A DNA stretch of 64,000 nucleotides, taken from the NCBI GenBank assembly GCA_964016885.1, contig OZ024757.1, positions 620,001-684,000 of the forward strand. Reading direction: 5' to 3'. This DNA comes from Eledone cirrhosa (taxonomy: Eukaryota). The position numbers were made by a program, and so were the translations under genes. This document shows positions 27,679 to 45,753 of this stretch, in pieces (the first letter of the stretch is position 1; each line of letters opens with the position of its first letter). Below the pieces are notes generated by a model, which worked only from the letters and a program-made list of their open reading frames with translations, did no database searches and was not told the origin of the DNA.

Positions 27679-28794
27679 TCAGTGATATGGCTTCTCTCCT
27701 GTATGTACATGTTTGTGCCTAGTTAAGTAAATACTTTGAGAGAATGATTTACCACATATATCACAGTGATATGGCTTGCAGCTTGTATGTATATGTTTGT
27801 GTCTAGTTAAGGTAGAACTAACAGAGAATGATTTACCACATATATCACAGTGATATGGCTTCTCTCCTGTATGTATACGTTTATGGGAGGTTAAGGTACT
27901 ACTTTCAGAGAAAGATTCACCACAGATATCACAGTGATATGGCTTCTCTCCTGTATGTATACGTTTGTGTCTAGTTAATTCAATACTTTGAGAGAATGAT
28001 TTACCACAGATATCACAGTGATATGGCTTGTCTCCTGTATGTATACGACTGTGATTTATCAAGCTTCCTTTATGAGAGAATGATTCACTGCAGATTTCAC
28101 AGTGATATGGCTTCTCTCCTGTATGTATACGTTTATGGGAAGTTAAGTGACTACTTTCAGAGAATGATTTACCACAGATATCACAGTGATATGGCTTCTC
28201 TCCTGTATGTACATGTTTGTGCTTTATCAAGCTTCCTTTTTGAGAGAATGATTCACCACAGATATTACAGTGATATGGCTTCTCTCCTGAATGTATACGT
28301 TTGTGTCTAGTTAATTCAATAATTTGAGAGAATGATTTACCACAGATATCACAGTGATATGGCTTGTCTCCTGTATGTATACGACTGTGATTTATCAAGC
28401 TTCCTTTATGAGAGAATGATTCACCGCAGATCTCACAGTGATATGGTTTCTCTCCTGTATGTATACGTTTATGGGAAGTTAAGTGACTACTTTCAGAGAA
28501 TGATTTACCACAGATTTCACAGTGATATGGCTTCTCTCCTGTATGTACATGTTTGTGCTTTATCAAGTTTCCTTTTTGAGAGAATGATTTACCGCAGATC
28601 TCACAGTGATATGGTTTCTCTCCTGTATGTATACGTTTATGGGAAGTTAAGTTACTACGTACAGAGAATGATTTCCCACAGATATCACAGTGATATGGCT
28701 TCTCTTCTGTATCGTTTGTCATCTCATCAGGTATAGTAATCCTTTTAGACAGTGTTTTACATTTTATCTTCTCACTGAATTTATTTTCCATCAT
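27679..28794 (-). CDS. Tandem C2H2 zinc-finger protein, 12 fingers (ZNF gene 2)
   Basis: [12 protein letters not shown] leader plus 12 fingers; acceptor at 29142-29143; AATAAA at 26971-26976 (-); out-of-frame fingers follow at 27354-27678. Confidence 0.92.
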
Positions 28795-30009
28795 GTTCCT
28801 TTCTTCTCAACAAAATATACAGCTGTTTTTCTTGTAATATTTTTTATATTGTATTCCTAAAAATATTTCTTTGATATTTCCCTCAACTGTGATCTCAGTT
28901 AATATCTTCAGATAACATAAACTTCTTTATTATCCAAGTTTAGTTAAGATACAAAATATATCTCATAGAGAAGAAGATAAACTTAGTTCTGAGTAAATAA
29001 TTCACAGTAATTGAACAATACAGTTATATAAACAGTGTTATATCACTTCTGTATAAATAGATTTATTCTTAAAATGATGATAAATATTGGTGATGTATCC
29101 AAGATGAATAAAATTAATTCATCCCAATGTCATCTGGTATTCTGAAATAAGAAAGAAACAGTGTGAGATAATAGAGAATACTTAAAGATAGATTTAACAG
29201 TGGAAATTTTATATTTCTATATTGTTAAACTGTAGATATCAACTTTCCTGTCCAGAGCAATTCTCTCCAATGTGAGCAGTAGTATTCCAGCATGTTATCC
29301 TTCTATCTCTTGGGAGGTCTCCTCTGTGGCATTTCCCCAGGAAATTCACTCTTCTAGGACTTTCTAACATAGCTATTCCTTCCTCTCCTGATAACCTGTC
29401 AACACCAGTTTAACCTCCACCTTTTTATGAGCAGGAGTCAATTGTTCCTCTATATCCTTTTCTCACTTCTCTATCACTCTCTCTCTCTCTCTCTTTCTCT
29501 GGGAGAAATCAGCTGTGTTTAGACCAGGAGTCAGGAGTCCATATAGATCCATACAATATCTGATTTCCCTTCAAGTTTTATCCAGGTATCAATTGTGTTC
29601 AGACCTGGAGAGAGAAGATCGGCTCCATAAGGTTTTAAAATATGCCCAAGAAACATTGTAAGTCACTAGAGTACCCCTAGTGTTACAGGTCCATACAATA
29701 TATATATATAAATATATGTGTATATATATATATATATATACACACACACACACATATATTTCCCTTTCTCTGGAAGAAATCAGATCAGTGTATTCAAATC
29801 TGGAAGGAAGGTGTCGTCTCCATCAGGTAATACCCAACAAATGTTATCTGTCACTGAGGTACCCCTATCACTCCACTTCTATATCCGGGTTAGCCAGTCA
29901 AGTAGGGATTAAGTATCTGTATTTCAAGGAGTTACTTTGGTGGTGGAGACACATCTGTTGGTGTGGGATTTCATCGGAGATTGTACATAATGTTCTAATT
30001 CTGTAAGTT

Positions 30010-42690: not shown

Positions 42691-43881
42691 GCTAACTTAC
42701 AGAATTAGAACATTATGTACAATCTCCAATGAAATCCCACACCAACAGATGTGTCTCCACCACCAAAGTAACTCCCTGAAATACAGATACTTAATCCCTA
42801 CTTGACTGGCTAACCCGGACATAGAAGTGGAGTGATAGGGGTACCTCAGTGACAGATAACATTTGTTGGGTATTACCTGATGGAGACGACACCTTCCTTC
42901 TAGATTTGAATACACTGATCTGATTTCTTCCAGAGAAAGGGAAATATATGTGTGTGTGTGTATATATATATATTGTATGGACCTGTAACACTGTCTTAGG
43001 GGTACTCTAGGGACTTACAATGTTTCTTGGGCATATTTTAAACCTTATGGAGCCGATCTTCTCTCTCCAGGTCTGAACACAATTGAAACCTGGATAAAAC
43101 TTGAAGGGAAATCAGATATTGTATGGATCTATATGGACTCCTGACTCCTGGTCTAAACACAGCTGATTTCTCCCAGAGAAGGAGAGAGAGAGAGAGAGAG
43201 TGATAGAGAAGTGAGAAAAGGATATAGAGGAACAATTGATTCCTGCTAATAAAAAGGTGGAGGTTAAACTGGTGTTGACAGGTTATCAGGAGGGGAAGGA
43301 ATAGCTATGTTAGAAAGTCCTAGAAGAGTGAATTTCCTGGGGAAATGCCACAGAGGAGACCTCCCAAGAGATAGAAGGATAACATGCTGGAATACTACTG
43401 CTCACATTGGAGAGAATTGCTCTTGACAGGAAAGTTGATATCTACAGTTTAACAATATAGAAATAGAAAATGTCCACTGTTAAATCTATCTTTAAGTATT
43501 CTCTATTATCTCACACTGTTTCTTTCTTATTTCAGAATACCAGATGACATTGGGATGAATTAATTTTTTTATCTTGGATACATCACCAATATTTATCATC
43601 ATTTTAAGAATAAATCTATTTATACAGAAGTGATATAACACTGTTTATATAACTGTATTGTTCAATTACTGTGAATTATTTCCTCAGAACTAAGTTTATA
43701 TTCTTCTCTTTGAGATATATTTTGTATCTTAACTAAACTTGGATAACAAAGAAGTTTACGTTATCTTCAGATATTAACTGAGAATACAGTTGAGGGAAAT
43801 ATCAAAGAAATATTTTTAGGAATATAATATAAAAAATATTACAAGAAAAACAGCTGTATATTTTGTTGAGAAGAAAGAAAC

Positions 43882-45753
43882 ATGATGGAAAATAAATTCA
43901 GTGAGAAGATAAAATGTGAAACACTGTCTAAAAGGATTACTATACCTGATCAGATGACAAACGATACAGAAGAGAAGCCATATCAATGTGATATCTGTAA
44001 AAAGTCATTCTTTAATAAGAGCAACTTAACTAGGCATAAACGTGTACATACAGGAGAGAAGCCATATGACTGTGATATCTGTGGTGAATCATTCTCTCAA
44101 AAAGGAAGCTTGATAAGGCACAAACATGTACATACAGGAGAGAAGCCATATCACTGTGATATCTGTGGGAAATCATTCTCTGATAGTAGTCACTTAACTT
44201 CCCATAAACGTATACATACAGGAGAGAAACCATATCACTGTGAGATCTGCGGTAAATCATTCTCTCAAAAAGGAAGCTTGATAAAGCACAAACATGTACA
44301 TACAGGAGAGAAGCCATATCACTGTGATATCTGTAAAAAGTCATTCCTTAATAAGAGCAACTTAACTACGCATAAACGTGTACATACAGGAGAGAAGCCA
44401 TATCACTGTATTATCTGTGGTAAATCTTTCTCTGATAGTAGTCACTTAACTTCCCATAAACATATACATACAGGAGAGAAGCCATATCACTGTGATATCT
44501 GTGGGAAATCATTCTCTGATAGTAGTCAATTAACTTCCCATAAACGTATACATACAGGAGAGAAACCATATCACTGTGAGATCTGCGGTAAATCATTCTC
44601 TCAAAAAGGAAGCTTGATAAAGCACAAACATGTACATACAGGAGAGAAGCCATATCACTGTGATATCTGTGGGAAATCATTCTCTGATAGTAGTCAATTA
44701 ACTTCCCATAAACGTATACATACAGGAGAGAAACCATATCACTGTGAGATCTGCGGTAAATCATTCTCTCACAAAGGAAGCTTGGTAAAGCACAAACATG
44801 TACATACAGGAGAGAAGCCATATCACTGTGAAATCTGTGGTAAATCATTCTCTGAAAGTAGTCATTTAAGTTCCCATAAACGTATACATACAGGAGAGAA
44901 GCCATATCACTGTGAAATCTGTGGTAAATCATTCTCTGAAAGTAGTCACTTAACTTCCCATAAACGTATACATACAGGAGAGAAGCCATATCACTGTGAA
45001 ATCTGCGGTGAATCATTCTCTCATAAAGGAAGCTTGATAAATCACAGTCATATACATACAGGAGAGAAGCCATATCACTGTGATATATGTGGTAAATCAT
45101 TCTTTCAAAGTATTAAATTAATTAGACACAAACGTATACATACAGGAGAGAGGCCATATCACTGTGATATCTGTGGTGAATCTTTCTCTGAAAGTAGTAC
45201 CTTAACTTCCCATAAACGTATACATACAGGAGAGAAGCCATATCACTGTCATATCTGTGGTAAATCATTTTCTCGTAAAGGAAGCTTGTTAAAGCACAAA
45301 CTTATACATACAGGAGAAAAGCCATATCACTGTGATATCTGTGGTAAATCATTCTCTCAAAGTATTGAATTAACTAGACACAAACGTATACATACAGGAG
45401 AGAAGCCATATCACTGTGATATCTGTGGTGAATCTTTCTCTGAAAGTAGTACCTTAACTTCCCATAAACGTATACATACAGGAGAGAAGCCATATCACTG
45501 TGATATCTGTGGTAAATCATTTTCTCATAAAGGAAGCTTGTTAAAGCACAAACTTATACATACAGGAGAAAAGCCATATGACTGTGATATCTGTGGTAAA
45601 TCATTCTCTGTTAGTTGTAGCTTAACTAGACACAAACATATACATACAGGCGGCAAGCCATATCACTGTGATATATGTGGTAAATCATTCTCTCAAAGTA
45701 TTTACTTAACTAGACACAAACATGTACATACAGGAGAGAAGCCATATCACTGA
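43882..45753 (+). CDS. Tandem C2H2 zinc-finger protein, 21 fingers (ZNF gene 3)
   Basis: [12 protein letters not shown] leader plus 21 fingers; acceptor TTTCAG| at 43535; AATAAA at 46542-46547; out-of-frame and decayed fingers at 45754-46510. Confidence 0.93.

Follow-up and report, generated by a model that had tools for sequence, protein, structure and literature searches.

How do two genes that lie in nearly the same DNA come to encode different arrays of zinc fingers, and how old is the difference? The question is raised by a 64,000-nucleotide stretch of Eledone cirrhosa DNA (GenBank assembly GCA_964016885.1, contig OZ024757.1, positions 620,001 to 684,000 of the forward strand), hereafter the window, in which two C2H2 zinc-finger genes, gene 2 and gene 3, stand head-to-head on a ~10-kb inverted duplication. 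The C2H2 genes of octopuses number well above one thousand; what they bind and how they diversify are described as open questions, as is, for cephalopods, an arms race with transposons (PMC12513265; here and below, articles are identified by PubMed Central number and cited for what their available excerpts state). Genes 2 and 3 offer a natural controlled comparison, with near-identical upstream DNA, different arrays, mappable breakpoints, an excess of change at contact residues and a clock in the flanks, and the pair makes the arms-race idea testable at one locus. We consider it probable that they are poly-zinc-finger paralogues whose arrays have come to differ as blocks of fingers were duplicated or lost in register, likely through unequal crossing-over or conversion, and whose DNA-contact residues have likely been diversifying.

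Reshuffling of the finger arrays

Both arrays keep an exact 84-bp register, and the assembled sequence gives 12 fingers in gene 2 and 21 in gene 3, in open reading frames (ORFs) placed exactly where the original prediction, made from the letters of this DNA, had put them (Table 1). The helix types that it named are present, and gene 3 carries DSSH/DSSQ and (R/H)KGSLLK types besides. Every block duplication that it listed proved to be real, the copies differing at 1-11 nt against medians of 31-65 nt for in-register pairs. In gene 3, F7-8 and F9-10 differ at 2/168 nt (median 31 over 190 in-register pairs), and further duplications were found beyond that list, namely F3-4/F7-8 (1/168), F11/F12 (2/84) and F1/F5 (3/84). 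The NKSNLT fingers F1 and F5 of gene 3, which lie 16 and 15 nt from the nearest finger of gene 2, are indeed absent from the latter. When gene 2 is compared with itself, its repeat switches just past the second Cys, inside a finger, and F6 is a chimera of an ESST-type N-terminal half and a QKGS-type helix, as would be expected from unequal crossover.

Modelling gene 2 as a copy of gene 3 gave 8 in-register segments at jump costs of 2.5 and 3.5 and 6 segments at a cost of 5.5. The 8-segment path leaves 22 mismatches in 1008 finger nt, and the synonymous difference along the path between the genes (5/209 sites, 2.4%) comes close to the 3.15% found in the 5' exon. When 43 units are placed in a tree, the fingers of genes 2 and 3 cluster by type and not by gene, while those of gene 1, an older paralogue used as outgroup, stay apart as two groups. 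Among 40 informative sites, 182 of 780 site pairs are incompatible, and neighbouring sites are less often so than in shuffled data (0.160 vs 0.233, p = 0.005), although linked changes within a codon can inflate the incompatibility signal. We estimate that at least 5-7 rearrangements would separate the two arrays. The in-register block duplications, the chimeric finger and the pattern of incompatibility all speak for the 84-bp unit as the unit of rearrangement, as had been proposed, and duplications and losses would likely arise by unequal crossing-over or conversion between such units. Nucleotide heterozygosity per site is 0.35-0.37 at helix positions -2 to +6, 0.05-0.09 in the TGEKP linker and 0.07-0.10 over the N-terminal ten codons, in agreement with the claim that variation is focused on the helix while the linkers are homogenised.

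Divergence of the arms and age of the arrays

Divergence along the arms is non-uniform (chi-square p about 1e-23). The inner arm differs at 12/2287 and 6/3000 sites, or 18/5287 (0.3%, with a range of 0.2-0.5%); toward the gene the count rises to 9/995 and, just before the putative splice acceptor, to 8/534. The 5' part of the coding exon differs at 14/445 sites and the out-of-frame tails at 14/351 and 13/241 (27/592), and farther out the counts are 2/266 and 11/774. Divergence near the genes thus exceeds that of the inner arm (p = 6e-15) and also that of the outer arm (p = 4e-4), and the outer arm is more diverged than the inner (1.25% vs 0.34%, p = 0.0007). The original prediction had called the arms near-identical, which is true of the inner 5.3 kb and not of the genes, whose 5' exons and tails give the higher counts above. 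Genes 2 and 3 are about 3% apart, beneath a divergence peak of 3-5%, and the time available for the arrays to diverge was therefore about tenfold what the inner arms would imply. Dating the arrays by inner-arm identity was rejected on this ground, the gene region diverging at ~3% and not 0.3%, and a quick origin of new specificities is an overstatement.

The account that we prefer is that the genes would have split at about 3% divergence and that arm-to-arm conversion would afterwards have homogenised the inner arms, halting at the mismatched arrays through selection or heterology. Divergence peaks under conversion, arising from either cause, have been described (PMC3924837). Old alleles or a third, donor paralogue would yield a similar peak. 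According to the latter alternative, which we regard as rather unlikely, the duplication is as young as its inner arms and one gene body (5' exon, array and tail) was overwritten by conversion from a third paralogue of the cluster, about 3% divergent, such that import, more than shuffling in place, would account for the differing arrays. In favour of a donor, the raised divergence coincides with the sequence that is homologous across the family, and gene 3 holds in-frame NKSNLT and (R/H)KGSLLK fingers far from any in gene 2 (15-16 and 8-9 nt, respectively). Against it stand the greater divergence of the outer than of the inner arm and the internal duplications that each array has of its own. 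When rooted with gene 1, the differences in the 5' exon also split about evenly between both branches, as read by eye, which fits an older split, although a donor is still compatible with this pattern. The two accounts are not exclusive, and import from a donor could stand beside reshuffling within the arrays.

Selection on DNA-contact residues

To gauge selection, the 33 fingers were joined in minimum spanning trees with 200 tie-breaks (edges of at most 5, 7 or 9 nt, which kept 25-29 of the 32 edges). At the contact positions -1, 2, 3 and 6 the ratio of non-synonymous to synonymous change per site (pN/pS) was 2.2-2.5 (median p 0.026, 0.009 and 0.002; worst 0.053), so that the excess named as a check in the original prediction was found, with p 0.002-0.05. 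Non-core, non-contact positions gave a pN/pS of 0.9-1.0, and the seven structural core residues had taken 0 amino-acid changes against 13-19 expected. Contact sites also changed faster than the other non-core sites (median p 0.006, 0.003 and 0.00005), a result that holds when each codon change is counted once. The contact positions hold 0.42-0.43 of the amino-acid diversity in the arrays. Among 256 other arrays of at least 8 fingers, drawn from search matches, 2 reach the value of gene 3 and 3 that of gene 2, and the share of near-duplicate fingers was matched by 7 and 8. The contact share also lies above all 8 fetched Octopus-labelled arrays of at least 6 fingers (0.15-0.37), one 4-finger array reaching 0.50.

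Several points weigh against diversifying selection. The pN/pS estimates rest on 12-19 synonymous changes, and at the strictest cut-off p rises to 0.053. They are simple site counts made without transition bias, and they assume tree-like edges, an assumption that conversion violates, as is stated for such data in PMC5519329. Along the direct path between genes 2 and 3, contact sites differ at 6/116 and synonymous sites at 5/209, both small counts. The near-neutral rate at non-core, non-contact sites also fits relaxed constraint. On the table columns of PMC5519329 the contact share of the two genes is exceeded by 10 and 36 of the 256 arrays; that background, coming from search matches, is not a fair sample, and the Octopus-labelled set of at least 6 fingers numbers only 8.

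These points bear on a neutral birth-and-death account, in which tandem arrays slip and recombine, selection keeps the fold alone and reshuffling carries no adaptive meaning. Such an account would sit well with a pN/pS of about 1 outside core and contact positions, with the loss of the last fingers of both genes to a frameshift, with the decay of three of the six C2H2 units in the window to relics (the other three having long ORFs) and with the modest statistical support for selection; it is nevertheless at odds with contact sites that outpace both synonymous and other non-core sites, and we hold it to be unlikely, somewhat more so than import from a donor. On present sequence evidence, purifying selection on the finger fold appears firm, and there is moderate evidence for diversifying selection on the contact residues.

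Structure of the inverted duplication

The left arm ends abruptly on both sides, its inner end abutting a reverse-transcriptase fragment of a long interspersed nuclear element (LINE) and its outer end a zinc-finger relic, whereas the right arm passes without a break into its flanks. Because of this difference the left arm may be the derived copy, or may have been trimmed by adjacent deletions. A LINE found in the right arm only is near full-length, with a first ORF of 412 amino acids that has no Pfam match and a second, encoding endonuclease and reverse transcriptase, that is broken by one frameshift and one stop; 7 bp of the empty target site were lost at its insertion.

Could the two arms be alleles of one locus, set side by side by an assembly mis-join or by a real capture, and their differences an allelic polymorphism of a deeply diverged, PRDM9-like hypervariable array? 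The inner-arm difference lies within the range of heterozygosity (that of Sepia is 1.03%, described as above octopus genomes; PMC13218726), old balanced alleles would also give a gene-centred peak of divergence, and the one-arm LINE could be an insertion polymorphism. Against this, there is no N anywhere in the window, and the non-homologous junctions that cut the left arm would be unusual for haplotypes joined at shared sequence. Exact in-register repeats reach at most 141 nt in gene 3 and 102 nt in gene 2, and none of the differences breaks the reading frame, which argues against unit duplications made by the assembler. Allelism is, in our estimation, less likely again than neutral turnover. 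Assembler-made finger duplications were rejected, given the lack of long exact repeats and the undamaged frames: the 33 in-frame fingers show no frameshift or stop, while the out-of-frame tails show several indels.

Gene models and upstream sequence

The predicted product of each gene would consist of a 32-amino-acid leader followed by fingers. An identical 2-nt deletion terminates both ORFs, and several decayed fingers follow it in each arm. The truncation is therefore older than the split of genes 2 and 3, and each array physically extends past its 12 or 21 in-frame fingers. Upstream of the coding exon lies a putative splice-acceptor block, ~65 nt of which are almost invariant between gene 1 (about 7430-7500, minus strand) and genes 2 and 3. 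All three frames are shut within about 35 nt of the putative acceptor in genes 1-3, so that it could not join any upstream domain to the fingers. Four codons (M-T-L-G) form a reading frame in the block, its stop being preserved through different codons, and a 24-nt motif from it had 0 matches in metagenome and viral contigs.

Farther upstream, a conserved non-coding element of ~600 bp precedes, and is co-oriented with, four zinc-finger units, its older copies being 77-85% alike. This co-orientation makes the element a candidate promoter or first exon, a small transposon being the alternative. An Rfam scan of it returned only 3 sub-threshold matches, which fall on the adjoining TA-rich stretch.

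The claim that the exon lacks a KRAB, SCAN, ZAD or SET domain was borne out in the 25 top-ranking Pfam rows of each protein (out of 30 and 34 matched families). SET, SSXRD and KRAB were likewise not found in 65 of the 68 listed upstream frames, a scan blind to exons shorter than 36 codons and to any lying beyond the regions covered; Pfam matches in those 65 frames were reverse-transcriptase remnants and weak chance matches alone. A PRDM9-like protein that marks recombination hotspots would match the turnover of 84-bp blocks and the contact-site excess, yet it is very improbable given these scans, the frames that shut behind the acceptor, a leader that begins at the same Met as in annotated Octopus proteins and a homogeneity well under PRDM9 level.

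Possible role of the proteins

Both proteins may be expressed DNA-binding factors, and by now the two would recognise different DNA sequences. Their most likely role, by analogy with the KRAB- and FiNZ-zinc-finger proteins, would be that of sequence-specific repressors binding retroelement-derived DNA. We propose it because, at the level of the family, the motifs predicted for octopus zinc fingers show enrichment in the consensus sequences of transposons (PMC10547256), and by that analogy.

The leaders of genes 1 and 3 contain a psi-K-x-E motif (IKCE and VKCE, respectively), whose Glu has been lost from gene 2 through one substitution. Of 21 leaders, 9 have the motif, where shuffling predicts 3.8 (p = 0.006), these leaders being mutually related and chosen by similarity. 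It matches the SUMO consensus, and SUMO-linked silencing routes occur in flies; we treat the motif as a lead only. The excerpts of PMC10547256 do not mention SUMO, minisatellites or gene conversion.

A bolder proposal, which we find doubtful, is that the palindrome acts as a self-renewing generator of specificities: arm-to-arm conversion would keep promoter and intron alike, selection would part the arrays, in-register exchange from arm to arm and inside either array would mint new fingerprints, and repression would proceed through the SUMO-type motif of the leader and not through KRAB. With promoter and intron near-identical, genes 2 and 3 would therefore be co-expressed under this proposal. 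Two features are worth following in any case, namely the peak of divergence over the arrays within a homogenised palindrome and an Octopus leader without a recognised effector domain.

Features of the window

The window is AT-rich and holds many retroelement remains and satellites. Relic zinc-finger units lie near 1.7-2.3 kb, 25.5-26.0 kb and 63.5 kb. The first (1700-2290, minus strand) is a decayed finger array with a 3' tail of the type seen in genes 2 and 3; the second (25495-26018, minus strand) has lost its 5' part, in whose place stands the left arm's outer end; and in the third (63076-63620, plus strand) pre-acceptor sequence is fused straight to fingers, the 5' exon and leader being absent. 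A second LINE (2579-5849, minus strand), with endonuclease- and reverse-transcriptase-like ORFs of 449 and 493 amino acids, sits inside the decayed 3' tail of gene 1. Tandem satellites occupy 12078-17473 (44-bp unit x121, with strong G skew), 56335-58154 (65-bp x28), 343-731 (40-bp x10) and 7646-8202 (55-bp x10), and the 44-bp and 55-bp arrays fall within a putative gene 1 intron.

Table 1. Coordinates of the features discussed, numbered from the first letter of the window
Feature	Position	Strand	Remarks
Gene 1, older paralogue, outgroup	6121..7080 (ORF to 7143)	-	10 fingers, 76% to gene 3 fingers
Gene 1 leader	6982-7080		Octopus-type; no Pfam family covers it
Further copy of ~600-bp element	18821-19364	-	upstream of another zinc-finger unit
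Left arm of inverted duplication	26019..36046	-	both ends are non-homologous junctions
Gene 2 tail	27086..27687	-	2-nt deletion and stop common to both genes; beyond it decayed fingers out of frame, arm-specific indels
Gene 2 ORF	27679..28806	-	coding region 27679..28791: leader and fingers; extra in-frame ATG at 28794
Gene 2 finger array	27688-28695	-	12 fingers
Gene 2 four-finger duplication F2-5/F6-9	27940..28611	-	11/336 nt differ; median 65 over 36 in-register 4-finger pairs
Gene 2 leader	28696-28791		Octopus-type; no Pfam family covers it
Gene 2 putative splice-acceptor block	29117..29187	-	AG ends 29142; putative splice use
Gene 2 conserved ~600-bp non-coding element	33654..34196	-	upstream of gene
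Spacer, 635 bp	36047..36681	.	LINE reverse-transcriptase fragment (-), short (AT)n, then upstream continuation of right-arm retroelement (+)
Right arm	36682..51631	+	runs on into flanks at both ends; LINE-interrupted
Gene 3 conserved ~600-bp non-coding element	38507..39115	+	upstream of gene
Gene 3 putative splice-acceptor block	43490..43560	+	AG ends 43535; nearly invariant; putative splice use
Gene 3 ORF	43870..45753	+	coding region 43885..45753: leader and fingers; extra in-frame ATG at 43882
Gene 3 leader	43885-43980		Octopus-type; no Pfam family covers it
Gene 3 finger array	43981-45744	+	21 fingers
Gene 3 F1, NKSNLTR type	43981..44064	+	no gene 2 counterpart
Gene 3 two-finger unit (DSSx + QKGS), three copies F3-4, F7-8, F9-10	44149..44820	+	
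Gene 3 F5, NKSNLTT type	44317..44400	+	3 nt from F1
Gene 3 three-finger duplication F14-16/F17-19	45073..45576	+	7/252 nt differ; median 48 over 171 pairs
Gene 3 tail	45745..46436	+	2-nt deletion and stop common to both genes; beyond it decayed fingers out of frame
LINE, 4.1 kb, right arm only	46702..50841	-	endonuclease and reverse-transcriptase Pfam matches; short tandem 3' tail
Further copy of ~600-bp element	61127-61791	+	upstream of another zinc-finger unit

Comparison with known systems

Judged by their leader, genes 2 and 3 belong to the C2H2 poly-zinc-finger family expanded in Octopus. They share with it tandem canonical C2H2 fingers with TGEKP linkers, clustering together with relics (six units in 64 kb) and the short leader, the last an operational marker drawn from searches and not a published definition. 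Many zinc-finger proteins labelled Octopus have N-termini that align with the 32-amino-acid leader from the same start Met, and the leader recurs in annotated Octopus proteins such as P0029, P0068, P0278, P0284 and P0322; P0246 likewise has repeated identical helices. A profile of the leader alone retrieved 5 proteins among 1.84 billion, comprising its 2 own seeds, 1 further Octopus-labelled protein, 1 unnamed and 1 repeat-rich. A search with the whole gene 3 protein retrieved generic multi-finger proteins, none Octopus-labelled among the 120 matches listed. The expansion of C2H2 genes in cephalopods is well known (PMC9068888, PMC12988792, PMC13218726), and clustered tandem-finger genes like those in the window are described for Octopus and other coleoids (PMC12513265, PMC9068888). 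What the excerpts of the latter two papers address is gene numbers, clusters and expression, and not rearrangement at the level of fingers, and our literature search, mostly of open literature, found no paper on finger-level turnover in cephalopods, though supplements to the 2015 octopus genome may bear on it.

The process itself is already known from mammals, fish and insects, which limits the surprise, and the pattern seen here is a known diversification route of such families in an unusually clear form, real and well supported at the level of sequence. Young paralogues among the mammalian KRAB zinc-finger genes (KRAB-ZNFs) gain and lose fingers under selection at positions -1, 2, 3 and 6 (PMC2604467, PMC3126818, PMC5363842, PMC12575710), and they too lie in retroelement-rich clusters with segmental duplications, inversions and decayed 3' fingers. 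The number of fingers varied in 23 of 24 lineage-specific mammalian expansions (PMC2604467) and is the commonest domain change among primate orthologues (PMC3126818), and drifting and shifting arrays as well as dynamic clusters are known in the mouse (PMC5363842, PMC12575710). The gain and loss of fingers between young paralogues that marks the KRAB-ZNF and FiNZ genes is likewise seen between genes 2 and 3. In contrast to the KRAB-ZNFs, KRAB was not found in the ORFs of genes 2 and 3 or in the 65 upstream frames, and amino-acid identity among the fingers of one array is 73-74% against a median of 57% in fetched vertebrate arrays.

Closer in this respect are the FiNZ-ZNFs of zebrafish (PMC10547256) and the ZF271-like genes of hemipterans (PMC6444547), lineage-specific clustered poly-finger families that lack KRAB. 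In the hemipteran genes, which encode no further domain and are effector-less, arrays are shuffled and pseudogenes occur (PMC6444547). The FiNZ proteins open with a short (28-amino-acid), acidic N-terminal segment encoded by its own exon (PMC10547256), whereas the leader of genes 2 and 3 sits in the finger exon, and the two are likened by description and not by sequence. Knockdown has demonstrated the repression of transposons by FiNZ-ZNFs (PMC10547256); for genes 2 and 3 it would be a role by analogy. The genes for the red and green opsins of humans, a duplicate pair subject to gene conversion (PMC3924837), resemble the present pair in the low divergence of their flanking non-coding DNA and in a peak over the functionally variable part, but here the large difference in array length could be a mechanical barrier to conversion, and selection is not required to explain the peak.

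The PRDM9 minisatellite likewise turns over in 84-bp units by in-register exchange, with a homogenised backbone and contacts as the most variable positions (PMC5519329, PMC11703093), and the amino-acid excess at DNA-contact positions that marks PRDM9 is present in genes 2 and 3 by the spanning-tree test. Mean finger identity is, however, 82% in both arrays, a DNA diversity of 0.18, against 0.079 in human and 0.034 in mouse PRDM9 (92% and 97% identity; PMC5519329). The contact share of 0.42-0.43 compares with 0.49-0.55 in salmonid PRDM9 (PMC11703093), and on the table columns of PMC5519329 it is 0.33-0.37 against 0.69 in human and 0.91 in mouse, a gap that is not absolute, some PRDM9 orthologues in that table scoring 0.41. 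Membership of PRDM9, in which diversity lies under about 0.1 and the share at about 0.5 or more, was rejected on these values and on the scans for KRAB, SSXRD and PR/SET, and the original description of the arrays as PRDM9-like goes too far. A separate search match, P0169, a gastropod "zinc finger protein 724-like", has SET-family Pfam matches, a strongly homogenised array and a contact share of 0.63, and is likely a mollusc PRDM9; the excerpts of a preprint on cnidarian PRDM9 contain no passage on molluscs.

Overall, protein repeats seldom undergo concerted evolution (PMC5100051). Were the generator proposed above a general one, octopus zinc-finger clusters would evolve family-wide between the KRAB-ZNF and the PRDM9 modes. 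Genes 2 and 3 keep several long-lived classes of finger 15-25 nt apart, unlike PRDM9, and their arrays behave as a slower, multi-class version of the PRDM9 minisatellite, yet are not PRDM9.

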